Assembly (NCBI GenBank): GCA_001817505.1
Contig: MHIM01000004.1
Span: 6,953 to 70,952 of the forward strand
DNA from: Candidatus Buchananbacteria bacterium RIFCSPLOWO2_01_FULL_39_33
GTDB taxonomy: Bacteria; Patescibacteriota; Patescibacteriia; 2-01-FULL-39-33
DNA: 64,000 nt
Direction of reading: 5' to 3'
The notes under the pieces are model-generated. The model did no database searches. It was not told where the DNA came from and saw only the letters and a list, made by a program, of their open reading frames with translations. The translations under genes were made by a program, and so were the position numbers. Positions 56,063 to 61,075 of the stretch are shown in pieces; the stretch's first letter is position 1, and each line of letters starts with the position of its first letter.

Positions 56063-56635
56063 TTAGAGATCCAAGATGGCTACGATGGCAGCCAGCTTGC
56101 CTTCGGCGGTTAACGGATATTTTACGCCATCAACTTCAATTTCCGGCTTGTCGTCTGCCGGCGCATCGGTGGAAAAATACACCTCAATATCATCGCCATC
56201 GCCGACAAGATCCTCCAAATGGGCAAAGTCGCCATTAACTTTAACTGAAATAACATCATTCGGATTCTTGCCAACCACGTCGCGTAAAATATTGGCGATG
56301 GTATCAGGCGTTGCCAGAGCGTAATCTTGGCCGTCAATGACGCATTCAAGAGCGCCGCCTTCATTGCCTTTAATCTGTTTAAGGACTAAAATGATATCGC
56401 CATCTTCCAGGGGGGTGGTGACAACACTGCCTACATAGCCGTCGGCTTTGTCAACAGCTTCAATATTGGAGAACTTCTTTTTATTAACCCGGACTTCCCG
56501 GTCACGAACTAACTCGGACCAATTGATGCTACCGTTGAATGAAGCGGCTTGCCGGGCTACTTCCATGACTGTAGCGCCATCAGCAACTTCAATATAGATA
56601 ATTTTCCCCGGAACAACCATAATCTTGATATTCAT
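56063..56635 (-). CDS. ubiquitin-like beta-grasp protein: first Ubl domain ending in Gly-Gly, followed by a second beta-grasp-like C-terminal extension
   Basis: Strong SD aaggaga 7 nt upstream of the ATG at 56635. MNIKIMVVPGKIIYIEV...LEDGDIILVLKQIKGNEGG resembles ubiquitin and ends in GG. It is followed by ...ISVKVNGDFAHLEDLVGDGDDIEVYF, a ThiS/MoaD-like segment. Confidence 0.65.
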   Translation of the reverse strand: MNIKIMVVPGKIIYIEVADGATVMEVARQAASFNGSINWSELVRDREVRVNKKKFSNIEAVDKADGYVGSVVTTPLEDGDIILVLKQIKGNEGGALECVIDGQDYALATPDTIANILRDVVGKNPNDVISVKVNGDFAHLEDLVGDGDDIEVYFSTDAPADDKPEIEVDGVKYPLTAEGKLAAIVAILDL

Positions 56636-56705
56636 TGGTATCTCCTTCTTTGGTTTTACTTGGCTGGAAAATTTGAAAATATTACTGGTAAAAAGAACTG
56701 CCGAT

Positions 56706-57449
56706 TTAACCTTCAATAATCATCATTGGCTTGGCGCAAACAATCAATTCCTGCTGATAATTATCCCCCTTAAACCATTTGATCAGCTTCCAAACAGCTA
56801 TGGAAGCAATTAAAGAAACTGTCGGTGAAATTGCCCGATTGGTGCAAGGCGACTCCTCCGCTTCTTCATCGGTGTATAAGGTACCCTCCCATAAACGGAT
56901 ATCTTCCGGACTAAAAGGCAGAATAGCATATACTCGGCCGTTGTCAATACCCATTCTGGTTTCTACCATCAATCTGACATTGAGCCGATATTTAATAGCT
57001 CCTTCCCAGATTTCCCGCCTGACATTCATGGAATCAACCATTAAATAAACTATGCCTTTTAACTTGGTGGCGCTGGTGACTACTTCATTATGGACAGTAA
57101 TTTCAAGGCCGGTTGCTTCTAAAATTATGTCTCTAAGCGCCTCAACTTTTGGGTGGCCAACATCTTTGAGACGATAAACTTGATTGGGCAGATTATGGTC
57201 TTCCACCGCATCAAAATCATAAATATGTATTTTTTTAATTCCCATTTTAGCTAACAGGAAAGCCACATAACTGCCAGTGGCCCCGACACCGATAATATGG
57301 ACTTCATCTTCAAATTTATCGGGTGGAAACAAATCCAGTTGCCGCCAGTAGTCAACTATCACTATGGACGCCGGAACGGTTGGCTCCACTGTCGCTGGAT
57401 GATCCAAAACCTCTTCAGGAGTATCGGTGGCCGCTTGATCTTCTGCCAT
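56706..57449 (-). CDS. minimal E1-like adenylyltransferase (ThiF/MoeB/HesA family)
   Basis: Rossmann motif IIGVGATGSYVAFLLAKMG, DFDAVEDHNLPNQ, and a candidate catalytic Cys in SPCTNRA. Stop overlaps the JAB gene's start region. Confidence 0.75.
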   Translation of the reverse strand: MAEDQAATDTPEEVLDHPATVEPTVPASIVIVDYWRQLDLFPPDKFEDEVHIIGVGATGSYVAFLLAKMGIKKIHIYDFDAVEDHNLPNQVYRLKDVGHPKVEALRDIILEATGLEITVHNEVVTSATKLKGIVYLMVDSMNVRREIWEGAIKYRLNVRLMVETRMGIDNGRVYAILPFSPEDIRLWEGTLYTDEEAEESPCTNRAISPTVSLIASIAVWKLIKWFKGDNYQQELIVCAKPMMIIEG

Positions 57450-58447: not shown

Positions 58448-59597
58448 TATTTATCTCCTTGGGTTCATTTTCCACTATCGGCCAATGCTTGACAATGTTT
58501 GAACCAGCCCCGTCATCAAAATTAACCGTTTCCAAATATTCTAAAGCCAGCAGGGCAATAGCGGCAAATTGATATTCGGCTATCAGCTGGGCAATTATTT
58601 CCTTGATATTACCCAAGCAGGGTATACCATTTTTATTAATATGCGGGTGTTGGATATTGAAATCATCGCCAGTGCCTTTTCTGGTAGTATTGAAAAATTT
58701 GATGCCGCCGTCTTGGCCATTAAGATAAATTTCAATTCTGAACTTACCGATGTCAAAAGTAACTTTCTTCTGGCCGCCATTCGGCACTTTAGTGGTGATG
58801 TAAATGTGGCCGGTGTCAATGATCACCATATCCTCACTGGCTCTGACACTCTCCACGCCGTCCAAAGATACCAATTTATTATACTCGGCCTCAAAAATGG
58901 CAACATCGGATTGTTCACGCTGTTTTATTTGAAGCAATTGGCGCCTCGAATCGTCAGCGTTGCGAATAATAGCTATCAACTGCTTTTGCAAATTAACCTG
59001 CGTTGATTCCTGATCGGCTAAATTAGCTTCAATTTTTCTGATAAACATTTTATATTGCTGGCGGCAAGCTTCAACATAAAATTTCAGCTGGCGCTGCTGA
59101 CGGTCCTTAGCCAACTGAAGGTCGCGCTGCTGGCGTTCTTGGTCGGGCAAGGTCAACTCAACCACAGTCTGCTCTAAAATCTTGCGGTAAATATCTACAC
59201 CTTTGGTTATGTCACTTATAAAAATCGGCAGATGAATATACAAATTATCACCGATTATTTCGGCTAAAATATAATCTGATTGACCATCAGTAATGCCAAT
59301 GCCGGTATCAGTGAATTTAAAGCAGCTCCAACCATGCGTATTATCAGTAGTCAAGCCGAATAATTTATTGGGTACTTTAGCCGGACCGCTTCCGCCCATA
59401 GCCGCTGACCAGACAAAAATATGAAAACAACCATTACTTAAAGGAATCTGGCAGATATTAGAGAAGTGAACGATAGTTTTACGATTGATAACCGGCAACA
59501 ATATTTCTTCAGTAGCTCTTTTAAAGGCTAAAATTCTTTGGTGAGTAACATTTACCAGACCAGACTGATTAATAACCACCTGGGGAATATTAATCAT
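58440..59597 (-). CDS. E2 (UBC)-like conjugating-enzyme domain at the C-terminus, fused to an N-terminal domain shared with the upstream gene plus a coiled coil
   Basis: C-terminal QHPHINKNGIPCLGNIKEI matches the E2 HPN-x5-G-x-ICL catalytic motif. Residues around 60-170 are homologous to the C-terminus of the 493-aa upstream protein. Confidence 0.65.
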   Translation of the reverse strand: MINIPQVVINQSGLVNVTHQRILAFKRATEEILLPVINRKTIVHFSNICQIPLSNGCFHIFVWSAAMGGSGPAKVPNKLFGLTTDNTHGWSCFKFTDTGIGITDGQSDYILAEIIGDNLYIHLPIFISDITKGVDIYRKILEQTVVELTLPDQERQQRDLQLAKDRQQRQLKFYVEACRQQYKMFIRKIEANLADQESTQVNLQKQLIAIIRNADDSRRQLLQIKQREQSDVAIFEAEYNKLVSLDGVESVRASEDMVIIDTGHIYITTKVPNGGQKKVTFDIGKFRIEIYLNGQDGGIKFFNTTRKGTGDDFNIQHPHINKNGIPCLGNIKEIIAQLIAEYQFAAIALLALEYLETVNFDDGAGSNIVKHWPIVENEPKEINNV

Positions 59598-61075
59598 TTT
59601 TTTTGTTCTTCTTCTGGCAACTGTAAAAATTTCAGTGCTTTCTCCAATATCTTTCTGAAGATATTATAATCGTCGTGATAATCTTCGTGGCAAATATCAT
59701 GGAAAATATAGAGATTATTGCCAATAATTTCCGCTATGGGGTTGTCATCGTTGGTTTCGTCAGTAATAACGAAATCGGCCAAGTCGCTGGGTAAAAAACC
59801 AGGATCAGTACAACCAACTCCATAACCCCACATTCTGGCGGCTGTCATGGCATTTTTCTTGGAACCATTTAGCGATGACCAGATTAAGATATTAAAATCG
59901 TCATTGGCGGGTAATGGATGATTACTCCCATGAGGCACAAAAAGTTTAATATTTTTATTAACCGCCGGCAAAATAATCTGCCGAATCAGAGCTTCCACTC
60001 GTTCCAATTTCATTTGACCGACCCAGTTATTGGGCGTGATAAAGAAAACATCCTGGGGACGCAGTCCAGCAGGCGCTTGGCCCAGAGCAATGGGAATATA
60101 ATGTTCCAGTAAGTCAACGCAAAAAGCCAAATCAAAGTCATCTGGAGTATCGTTTAAGCCGAAAATATTAACCACCCGGCCATTAGCCAAATAACCGATA
60201 TTATTCCCTTGGTCTTCGCTCAAATTCAACTCCCGGCCAACAATAATATGAAGTTCATCGTCGGTTTGAGCGCGGGTGGGCAAGCCTTCACTGGCACAAT
60301 ATCTTTCATAAAGCTTGATTCTTTTAACGCCAGTAACATTAGTCCTAAGCCAATCACTTAAATTAATGAAAAGATCTTGCCAGCCATTATTATAATAGCC
60401 ACAGGGAGCAACAATTTCCATTTTAACACCTTGGCGAGCCATCAAATTCTCTCCTTCTTCGGCGGTAGCAGCCATCACAACCGGCAGATAGAGATGGATG
60501 TCATTTATTAACCGGTCATATTCGCTAAAGGTGAAATCATCAGAAATTTTCCTAAAGCCTATAACCTGGCCACCGGGTCGATAACTGACTCGGCCGTCAA
60601 TGACACTTGCCGTGATGCCGGCGCCAATAACCAGGTGAAGCTCATCGTCAACCGGCCTAATATCCCGATCTTCGTCGTCCACAGCTTCATGAATGACAAT
60701 GGTATGCGGATAATATTGACTTAATCGATTTTTCAGAACTTGAAGCTGCTGTTCCCAGTATTCGTTTAAAAAACCATTGGGCGCGGAAATAGCAACGCGC
60801 TCTCTGGGCGCTGCCGGCTCTTGGACAGCCGTCGGCATAAAAGTTACTGTTTCTGAATCCCGGACTGTTAACTTCAAAATACCGGGAATGGAAGTTTCGG
60901 TTTGCGCTGACACGTCAATTTTTAATAAAGTCAAAAATCTTATAATTTTATCTTCTTCCAAAATCAAGCCGTCGTCGCCGTCAATCTCCATATCAATACA
61001 AGGAATATCAATATTGGCCGAGGTAAATATTTTTTCTTCAGTCAAATCAGAAAAAGCCACGAAAAAATTGTTCAT
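59594..61075 (-). CDS. large uncharacterised protein, first gene of the Ubl/E1/E2/JAB operon
   Basis: 493 aa. Two internal repeats of about 45 aa (DDELHLVIGAG...GQVIGF... and DDELHIIVGRE...GRVVNIFGL...). The C-terminal domain (MWGYGVGCTD...AEIIGNNLYI...YNIFRKILEKAL) is paralogous to the N-terminal region of the E2-containing protein. Confidence 0.45.
   Translation of the reverse strand: MNNFFVAFSDLTEEKIFTSANIDIPCIDMEIDGDDGLILEEDKIIRFLTLLKIDVSAQTETSIPGILKLTVRDSETVTFMPTAVQEPAAPRERVAISAPNGFLNEYWEQQLQVLKNRLSQYYPHTIVIHEAVDDEDRDIRPVDDELHLVIGAGITASVIDGRVSYRPGGQVIGFRKISDDFTFSEYDRLINDIHLYLPVVMAATAEEGENLMARQGVKMEIVAPCGYYNNGWQDLFINLSDWLRTNVTGVKRIKLYERYCASEGLPTRAQTDDELHIIVGRELNLSEDQGNNIGYLANGRVVNIFGLNDTPDDFDLAFCVDLLEHYIPIALGQAPAGLRPQDVFFITPNNWVGQMKLERVEALIRQIILPAVNKNIKLFVPHGSNHPLPANDDFNILIWSSLNGSKKNAMTAARMWGYGVGCTDPGFLPSDLADFVITDETNDDNPIAEIIGNNLYIFHDICHEDYHDDYNIFRKILEKALKFLQLPEEEQKK

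Follow-up and report, generated by a model that had tools for sequence, protein, structure and literature searches.

The DNA analysed here, a 64,000-nucleotide stretch of contig MHIM01000004.1 from Candidatus Buchananbacteria bacterium RIFCSPLOWO2_01_FULL_39_33 (the window), carries a compact minus-strand cassette at positions 56063–61075 whose products correspond to a ubiquitin-like protein (Ubl), an E1-type activating enzyme, an E2-type conjugating enzyme and a JAB/JAMM metallopeptidase. We consider it likely, at a probability of about 0.75, that the cassette is a four-gene Ubl-conjugation system and a member of a large unannotated family present in the candidate phyla radiation (CPR), in Melainabacteria and on phage-like contigs. 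This reading is based on the domains identified, on their conserved catalytic residues, on gene order and on a Gly-Asn signature found throughout the family. Conjugation of this kind in bacteria, by CBASS Cap2/3, Bil and Bub, was established biochemically only in 2023–2024 and is central to the debate on the origin of ubiquitin signalling.

Five open reading frames (ORFs), designated A to E, had been predicted in this interval from the sequence alone, and all of them are present (Table 1), together with the strings quoted in their support: GVGATGS in D (residues 54–60), HVHPSSSTSPSGQDDD in C, HPHINKNGIPCLGNI in B and NEGG in E (residues 91–94). Overlapping stop and start codons, which the original prediction extended over the whole operon, are confirmed for A/B, B/C and C/D (4, 8 and 1 nt), while D and E do not overlap; E starts 70 nt downstream of the stop of D, at an ATG equivalent to the Met with which its homologues begin. 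A terminator-like hairpin past the Ubl gene is probably the end of the operon. The bacterium had been described as AT-rich, which the window, at a GC content of about 41%, is not to any marked degree.

The four components of the cassette

The proposed combination of an E1, an E2, a JAB peptidase and a Ubl is upheld by a ThiF match, an invariant JAMM motif, a UBC-like domain and a beta-grasp Ubl. ORF D matches Pfam ThiF with an E-value of 8.3e-21 over residues 49–229, and its nearest solved structure in a PDB search is E. coli ThiF (251 residues, E = 2e-6), while all NCBIfam ThiF/MoeB equivalogs score far under their cut-offs (e.g., 72 against 159). It is therefore regarded as a minimal, single-domain E1-like adenylating enzyme. 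The nucleotide loop GVGATGS contains G54xG56xxG59, and the GxGxxG, DxD, N..Q, Lys and Asp residues of adenylation are invariant in 35 E1 homologues. Cys202, which lies in PCTNRA and is at least 90% conserved among the 35 homologues, is a candidate for the catalytic Cys. The best library match of ORF D is the phage family phrog_15670 (4.8e-25). Other matches are to the PADLOC E1-E2 models (down to 3e-13, covering residues 48–136 only), to NCBIfam 6A-MBL cap2_3 (9e-13) and to NCBIfam PRTRC_ThiF (32 bits, cut-off 145).

ORF C contains the JAMM motif (HVHPSSSTSPSGQDDD, residues 122–137) and an upstream Glu. The five residues E60, H122, H124, S132 and D135 were invariant in nine homologues and again in 34. 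The C-terminal extension of this protein has a Cys-rich patch, C-x8-C-x2-C-x5-C-H (residues 288–307, window 57527–57586), which none of the other eight homologues in the alignment has and which may be a lineage-specific zinc-binding element.

The product of ORF E resembles ThiS, MoaD and SAMP, and members of its family score above the Pfam ThiS and TGS thresholds. A structural model (predicted local distance difference test score, pLDDT, 86.1) gives two beta-grasp domains, at residues 1–90 and about 95–155, followed by an acidic linker and a tail of a beta-hairpin and a helix; pLDDT is low at residues 86–100. The first domain had been thought to end in GG. However, the GG at residues 93–94 is not conserved, and the signature of the family is instead [KR]-G-N, here K89-G90-N91. 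Neither G90 nor N91 varies among 12 homologues of ORF E or in any of the more distant Ubls found. All Ubls found in the family have G-N at the close of the first beta-grasp, nearly always with Lys or Arg before it and with 0–280 residues after it, and in Ubls of 72–129 residues it stands 0–2 residues from the stop. For instance, short Ubls from the loci described below (L numbers) terminate in KIKGNRKPLKR (L005), KIRGND (L025), KIRGN (L022) and PTTGN (L040), and those of viral loci, which range from 72–82 residues, the size of ubiquitin, to 210, terminate in QVKGN, KGNM, KGNN, KGNSN or MIKGN. One Ubl protein consists of two head-to-tail units, both ending in KGN, and then further beta-grasp domains. 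Similarly, in three Melainabacteria loci the product is made up of three consecutive units of about 77 residues, joined head to tail, each ending in LLLRPVRGN and the last of them at the stop codon, in the manner of a polyubiquitin gene. Since G-N closes the short Ubls at or near the stop, everything past N91 in ORF E is taken to be a C-terminal extension, which is variable or absent elsewhere in the family. When the Ubl profile was searched against PDB sequences, matches to TALE repeats were obtained; these were sums of weak repeat matches with zero qualifying stretches, and were rejected as an artefact.

The E2 assignment concerns the C-terminal domain of ORF B, whose active-site loop lies within HPHINKNGIPCLGNI (residues 317–331). 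P318, H319, C327 and G329 are invariant across 14 homologues of ORF B, and in 48 diverse representatives of the family the Pro of the loop is invariant and the His and Cys are at least 90% conserved. A Cys at position HPN+8 had been predicted, and the putative catalytic C327 does lie eight residues past H319, with His replacing Asn. This is the spacing of classical E2s, equal to that from N77 to C85 in UBE2D-type enzymes. The AlphaFold model of ORF B, built with 14 homologues (pLDDT 81.7), consists of an N-terminal alpha/beta module (residues 1–150), a coiled-coil helix of about 100 residues (130–227) and a C-terminal alpha-beta-alpha domain. The last contains the elements of a UBC fold, that is, alpha1, a four-stranded meander, the active-site loop and C-terminal helices, and its top globular structural matches are eukaryotic E2s. 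A profile of the C-terminal 158 residues found E2 enzymes only (UBE2L3 at E = 0.23, and UBE2W) among 177,635 PDB sequences, in an alignment that extends from strand 1 via GxFRIEI to HPH/HPN and Cys/Cys. The predicted model and the sub-significant profile match agree, and the identification of this domain as an E2 is supported by both.

By analogy with Bil, SAMP and ubiquitin, the chemical steps can be proposed. In the simplest reading, the JAMM peptidase would cut the Ubl precursor between Gly90 and Asn91, leaving beta-grasp 1 with the end Ile-Lys-Gly and Gly90 exposed for adenylation; Asn91 could be a P1' determinant. BilC comparably cleaves BilA after Gly97, one residue before the BilA end (PMC10557695). 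The ThiF-like E1, probably as a homodimer, would adenylate Gly90, with an optional thioester on Cys202, and the Ubl would then be handed to Cys327 in the HPH…C loop of the UBC domain. The cassette encodes no E3, and targets may be picked by the fast-evolving N-terminal modules and the coiled coil (ORF A and the N-terminal part of ORF B); a direct, E3-independent recognition of targets has likewise been proposed for Bil E2s (PMC11601596). Transfer of the Ubl to a target amine would follow, and the same peptidase would also be able to reverse the conjugation. The site of cleavage, the thioester relay, the N-terminal choice of targets and any biological role of the cassette are all proposed on this basis.

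Several points weigh against the identification of a working conjugation system. The profile match to E2 enzymes does not reach significance, and a Foldseek search of the ORF B model against the PDB returned no UBC match (best E = 0.33). ORF B has no match in Pfam (including UQ_con and Prok-E2_A to Prok-E2_E), PADLOC, PHROGs or NCBIfam, and no Pfam domain is detected in the 48 diverse members. ORF C is weak against Pfam Prok-JAB (E = 0.2; 12 bits, cut-off 25) and against the PADLOC JAB models (E = 0.005), nine JAB homologues in a Pfam scan gave only Prok-JAB at E of about 0.2, and the JAB profile matched no PDB sequence at E ≤ 1. Hence, among the Pfam families suggested at the outset, ThiF is clearly matched, Prok-JAB is marginal and UQ_con is not matched. 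The E1 contains no UFD or CYS domain for recruiting an E2, and its Cys202 falls short of strict invariance. A simple cap model does not explain why the residue following the Gly is always Asn, even where it is the last one; a mature Ubl that ends in Asn instead of Gly is a less likely possibility. Finally, because this genome has its E2 gene in two pieces, the activity of this copy is not guaranteed.

Table 1. Positions of the cassette genes and associated features (window coordinates unless a locus is named)
Feature	Position	Strand	Description or basis
ORF A	59594–61075	minus	493 aa, N-terminal half of E2-type protein
ORF B	58440–59597	minus	385 aa, C-terminal half with E2/UBC-like domain
ORF C	57449–58447	minus	332 aa, JAB/JAMM metallopeptidase with lineage-specific C-terminal extension
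ORF D	56706–57449	minus	247 aa, minimal single-domain ThiF/MoeB-type E1
ORF E	56063–56635	minus	190 aa from ATG, Ubl precursor
Shine-Dalgarno AAGGAGA	56641–56647	minus	5 nt 5' of Ubl ATG (56635)
A8 run at A/B junction, A_AAA_AAA slippery-type site	59597–59604	minus	sequence reading
UBC (E2)-like catalytic domain, B residues ~245–375	58473–58865	minus	
E2 active-site loop H317-P318-H319…C327 (HPHINKNGIPC)	58617–58649	minus	homologue alignments
JAMM zinc/catalytic motif H122-x-H124-x7-S132-x2-D135	58043–58084	minus	alignment columns
Upstream JAMM Glu, E60	58268–58270	minus	alignment column
G90-N91, predicted JAB processing site	56363–56368	minus	conservation
Ubl C-terminal extension, residues 92–190	56066–56362	minus	second beta-grasp without terminal Gly, and tail
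Terminator-like hairpin	56007–56029	minus	9-bp stem then T run, 34 nt past Ubl stop
Polyubiquitin-like gene	L036:1802–2560, L031:1854–2603, L037:1686–2591		just upstream of E2 paralogues, Melainabacteria metagenome-assembled genomes
Clp AAA+ gene	L029:7730–10054, L036:8267–10729; also L028, L030–L034, L037, L038		Pfam AAA, AAA_lid_9, AAA_2, ClpB_D2-small

Architecture and split of the E2 gene

A single ORF of about 750–785 residues takes the place of A and B in two related CPR lineages that carry the cassette at an equivalent site. Residues 1–396 of the 785-residue ORF from a related Buchananbacteria metagenome-assembled genome (MAG) align with A, and residues 399–783 align with B at 44% identity. 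Because the relatives have one ORF colinear with A and B, the cassette is counted as four genes. The 493-residue protein had been predicted as a repeat-containing partner; the repeat is real, and the protein is the N-terminal half of the E2 protein, not a separate component. The repeat units (residues 92–201 and 217–331) align with a score of 71 against 27 ± 4.7 for shuffles, and none of 500 shuffles reached that score. A tandem-repeat scan of the DNA yielded nothing. The two repeats are preceded by an N-terminal 'NFF' domain and followed by an alpha/beta module (residues about 358–493) that is paralogous to residues 20–157 of ORF B (30% identity, E = 2e-13). No match to ORF A was found in Pfam, PADLOC, PHROG, NCBIfam or PDB. 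The N-terminal alpha/beta module was also considered as a degenerate E2/UEV domain, which was not supported (hhalign probability 0.7%).

At the junction, the sequence GAA GAA GAA CAA AAA AAA TGA ends ORF A, and the ATG of ORF B lies in the −1 frame (A-ATG-A). Reading in −1 over the A8 run gives EEQKK-MINIPQVV, which is colinear without any indel with EERLALINAPQVV of L010, a relative that has no A run at the junction. A −1 ribosomal shift, or one additional A in the mRNA, would therefore restore the A-B fusion. Three independent metagenome assemblies and three NCBI MAGs share the same A8 junction, and A and B are found with their exact sequences on 16–18 contigs, so that the split is a real population feature and no assembly error. 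A programmed −1 frameshift with a stimulatory structure was rejected, as shuffled sequences fold just as well as the RNA 3' of the A8 run (z = −0.10). Slippage at A8 is possible, though unsupported. ORF B may plausibly function alone, since family members of 373–374 residues share its architecture, and coupled translation of the two ORFs is allowed by the overlap of the B ATG with the A stop (ATGA). As a speculative possibility, the split at A8 may let recoding switch the E2 between a fused form and a separate one.

The motif LYIHHDIC(H) is nearly invariant in the N-terminal alpha/beta module of homologues of about 448 residues, and it could be a metal-binding or catalytic site. FHDICH is retained in the module of ORF A (residues about 461–466, window 59660–59680 region) and lost from that of ORF B (residues about 120–126), which hints at a division of labour between the two. 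A second conserved Cys, Cys178 of ORF B (window 59064–59066), occurs as Y-x3-C-x2-R in the long helix preceding the E2 domain; it is kept in 11 of 14 close homologues and in at least 90% of the 48 diverse members, and is possibly a relay or regulatory Cys.

Over the whole family, E2 proteins are 320–1,280 residues long with the E2 domain at the C-terminus and an N-terminal part of about 170 to about 1,130 residues. Melainabacteria have two or three E2 paralogues each, some of them Cys-less and UEV-like, including one Cys-to-Gly copy. Likewise, a Cys-less E2-like domain (HPLVDQEGRAKLG) is present in a 667-residue protein encoded on the divergent strand beside the cassette (L005:370–2373 and L006:411–2414), which from its sequence appears to be an inactive UEV-like paralogue.

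Family distribution and gene neighbours

A word-indexed homologue search retrieved only 15 relatives of ORF B. Scanning with a hidden Markov model of the E2 domain gave 3,723 cluster representatives (50% identity) at E ≤ 1e-3, and 2,181 at E ≤ 1e-10; for these approximately 3,700 clusters there is no model in Pfam, NCBIfam, PADLOC or PHROGs. Locus contexts were gathered by exact protein, by JAB patterns in GTDB genomes and from IMG/VR, and were scanned with home-made profiles. The 49 loci fetched amount to about 35 distinct ones, since some contigs were reached twice, and a few short contigs are cut at the E2. Among them, the order E2-JAB-E1 holds in every locus that has all three genes on the fetched DNA, and the three are separate genes in every locus examined. 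The Ubl gene lies 3' of the E1 in the window and in CPR loci, and 5' of the E2 in Melainabacteria and several viral loci. Host records are from Buchanan-, Moran-, Falkow- and Saccharibacteria, from Melainabacteria and Obscuribacterales, and from one Firmicute MAG. We found no description of the family, either in CPR and Melainabacteria or as a further Bil or Bub type, in the open-access literature.

In the window, the cassette lies among housekeeping genes, with uvrA and uvrB downstream, and genes for an Fe/Mn superoxide dismutase (SOD) and enolase upstream. Two related CPR lineages have uvrB, uvrA, uvrC and truB after the cassette, and in one of them, the Buchananbacteria relative, SOD lies upstream as well. 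A functional link to uvrB, uvrA or SOD was rejected, since the synteny is limited to the closest relatives and other loci have unrelated neighbours. The genes of this locus have diverged to very different extents. Identity to the Buchananbacteria relative falls from UvrA (85%) and UvrB (80%) through E1 (76%), JAB (60%) and Ubl (55%) to B (44%) and A (29%); over L010 and L012 the ranges are 85–87%, 80–82%, 76–81%, 60–66%, 52–55%, 44–46% and 29–36%, respectively, the A half being the fastest-evolving.

In 10 of 10 Melainabacteria/Obscuribacterales loci with downstream sequence, three of which carry the poly-Ubl gene upstream, the next gene after the E1, on its strand, is of Clp type with a double AAA+ (ClpB/ClpC). 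No Clp gene adjoins the cassette in the window or in other CPR loci.

Nine predicted viral contigs of IMG/VR (L041–L049, 4.6–112 kb) contain the E2-JAB-E1 core, six of them with a neighbouring Ubl ORF of 72–210 residues that ends in KGN and 0–2 further residues. DnaB, primase, integrase and transposase genes are found near these viral loci; tail, capsid or other virion genes were not seen beside the cassette in those examined. No relatives of the E2 or the JAB protein were detected in the 50,697 sequenced phage genomes of INPHARED. Minimal E1-like proteins, 27–31% identical to ORF D, are encoded by crAss-like, Flavobacterium and jumbo Xanthomonas and Erwinia phages (PQ006092.1, MT774390/1, KT876724.1 and PV764601-3), mostly annotated 'thiamine biosynthesis protein', and no E2 or JAB relatives were detected in these E1-encoding phages.

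Relation to described systems and possible roles

The cassette is closest in content to Bil (types I and II, 'bacterial ISG15-like'). Both consist of four separate proteins (Ubl, E2, JAB/JAMM deubiquitinase (DUB) and E1) with the core order E2-DUB-E1; a Gly with a short tail behind it is where the DUB is expected to trim the Ubl in advance; and neither has an E3, the choice of targets being ascribed to the E2. The departure from the canonical Bil layout noted in the original prediction is nevertheless confirmed, and no library recognises the cassette. The Bil order is Ubl-E2-DUB-E1 (PMC10557695), and the E1, BilD, has an inactive adenylation domain (IAD) and an active one (AAD) in tandem, with a mobile CYS domain (PMC11601596). 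In contrast, the E1 here is a single ThiF-like domain of 225–250 residues; the E2 is C-terminal in a large protein with variable N-terminal modules, a coiled coil and an HP[H]-x7-C loop; the Ubl bears [KR]-G-N and C-terminal extensions, where those of Bil are N-terminal; the Ubl gene follows the E1 in this genome; and the hosts are CPR and Melainabacteria. A PADLOC search called no system, and besides the CBASS-type E1-E2 and JAB models there was no PADLOC match that would indicate homology to BilA–D, the libraries being assumed to contain Bil. Searches of the PDB with the JAB, E2 and E1 queries similarly returned no bacterial Bil chain, on the assumption that such chains are in the PDB set. 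The Bub (6E) systems fuse Ubl to E2 and JAB to E1 in type I, or E2 to E1 in type II; they also encode BubE, a serine protease of the DUF6527 family, and work through oxyester (Ser) intermediates (PMC11601596). Here the genes are separate, no DUF6527 Pfam match exists in the five ORFs, the flanking genes are uvrB and SOD, and the putative active-site position of the E2 is a conserved Cys.

Relative to eukaryotic E2s (UQ_con), the predicted fold is the same, and the loop H-P-x-[IV]-x3-G-x2-C-L is spaced as HPN…C. However, the Asn of the catalytic loop is replaced by His, the first His is often Ala, Pfam UQ_con is not matched, and the domain is set inside a large multi-module protein. In type II CBASS, Cap2 is an E2-E1 fusion and the CD-NTase is the conjugated 'Ubl'. 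The adenylation core of the E1 resembles the E1 half of Cap2, and a JAB partner is common to the cassette and type II CBASS or 6A-MBL, but the E2 and E1 are separate here and no CD-NTase, effector or MBL gene is present. Operons of the Caldiarchaeum type encode Ub, E1, E2, a small RING E3 and an Rpn11-like JAB that matures the pro-Ubl; the cassette shares the separate Ubl, E1, E2 and JAMM peptidase, but has no RING E3 gene, a Ubl that ends in G-N instead of GG, and a minimal E1. Separate genes for Ubl, JAB, E1 and E2, along with an alpha-helical protein, also characterise class 6d (PMC1779556), to which, with PRTRC, the cassette is alike in this respect. The E2 of class 6d differs in that the classical His is missing and the Cys is followed by a His. 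The 6d JAB begins with an alpha+beta domain, and the helical protein is extra. None of the Iyer-Burroughs-Aravind classes 6a–6e (PMC1779556) fits the cassette. It is best read as a further family of bacterial Ubl-conjugation operons, distinct from those described so far.

The retention of four genes in the tiny genomes of CPR bacteria implies a real use. The identity gradient, along with the patchy and viral distribution, leans toward conflict or defence, as an N-terminal region that tracks changing partners would predict such a gradient along the locus. Conflict with phages or mobile elements is the role we place first, at a little less than even odds and ahead of proteostasis tagging, which seems appreciably less probable. 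Opposed to a conflict role are the absence of a PADLOC system and the stable site between housekeeping genes (SOD and uvrB) in related CPR genomes. A third contrary observation is the Clp gene that follows the E1 in the ten Melainabacteria loci, all of those with downstream sequence, since it suggests that tagged proteins are unfolded or degraded.

These considerations bear on the alternatives. A housekeeping or regulatory tag for unfolding or degradation, as in the ubiquitin-proteasome or Pup-Mpa systems, is doubtful. The Clp linkage, the upstream poly-Ubl genes and the vertical retention of the cassette at one chromosomal site in reduced CPR genomes would suit it; yet no Clp gene adjoins the cassette in the window or other CPR loci, the linkage could be no more than synteny particular to one clade, the family occurs sporadically and also on viral contigs, and the rapid divergence of the E2 N-terminus is unusual for a housekeeping function. 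Simple membership of the cassette in the antiphage family Bil (BilABCD), as a divergent branch, is unlikely, as the E1 is not IAD-AAD-CYS, no similarity to solved bacterial E2, DUB or E1 chains is detectable in PDB searches, PADLOC calls no system, the Ubl gene is last in this genome, and the site between SOD and uvrB, common to related CPR genomes, is no defence island. Such membership would nevertheless account for the four activities in common, for a core equivalent to BilB-BilC-BilD with the full Bil order in Melainabacteria and several viral contigs, for a Gly before a removable tail as in BilA, for the fast-evolving recognition region and for a patchy occurrence that extends to viral contigs near integrase or transposase. 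The cassette could also be one that serves a phage or mobile element, for example by helping virions or particles to assemble, like lambda TAPI/TAPK, or by countering defence, and was domesticated in a CPR chromosome. We regard this as improbable: the viral contigs with their KGN Ubl genes, the phage family as best E1 match and the replication and integration genes nearby speak for it, but no virion genes were seen beside the cassette in the loci examined, the sequenced phage genomes have no E2 or JAB relatives, and the surroundings in the window are housekeeping genes.

A comparably small chance is given to decay, that is, inactivation of the E2 gene by the frameshift that splits it. The uninterrupted ORF of the relatives and the RNA past the A8 run, which forms no stimulatory structure, are what decay would lead one to expect. 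On the other hand, both halves are still long intact ORFs, the split recurs in the NCBI MAGs and contigs, B alone has a natural short architecture, the loss of FHDICH from B and not from A suggests a division of labour, and the ATGA overlap allows coupled translation. Least probable by far is a sulfur-carrier module of the ThiS/MoaD type without protein conjugation, the alternative named in the original prediction. Although ThiF proteins are the closest curated and solved relatives of the E1 and the Ubl is like ThiS, MoaD and SAMP, the equivalog scores are too low, no thiamine, molybdopterin or rhodanese genes adjoin the cassette in the window, the obligate partners are a JAB and an E2-fold protein with a conserved Cys, and the Ubl ends in G-N or a long extension, not in GG.

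In its widest form, the reading as a conjugation system would comprise a widespread tagging system of CPR, Melainabacteria and their phages, with the most eukaryote-like E2 of any bacterial family (HPx-x7-Cys loop), a ubiquitin-sized Ubl or poly-Ubl cut at Gly-Asn, and, in Melainabacteria at least, a hand-over to a dedicated Clp-type unfoldase. This is a speculative extension that we consider doubtful; if true, it would be a bacterial counterpart or antecedent of ubiquitin-proteasome logic. The family is distinctive in its minimal E1, classical-type E2 loop, G-N Ubl, poly-Ubl genes, Clp linkage and recoding-type split, and the cassette bears on how a minimal E1 feeds an E2, how E2s choose targets without an E3, and on tag-dependent unfolding or degradation in bacteria beyond the Pup system.

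It is feasible to use profiles from the family alignments in annotation and defence pipelines, which would let them spot thousands of operons that carry no label at present. In an exact-sequence look-up, the proteins of the cassette were present in three NCBI Candidatus Buchananbacteria MAGs, labelled there as 'hypothetical protein' or 'THIF-type NAD/FAD binding fold domain-containing protein'. The cassette also occurs in four MAG records titled 'uncultured Gammaproteobacteria' (L014 CAYIBK01, L016 CAZXUK01, L018 CAYHQU01 and L025 CAZVCF01). L014 has the cassette-uvrB-uvrA synteny of Buchananbacteria and a UvrA about 87% identical, and the four titles are probably wrong.

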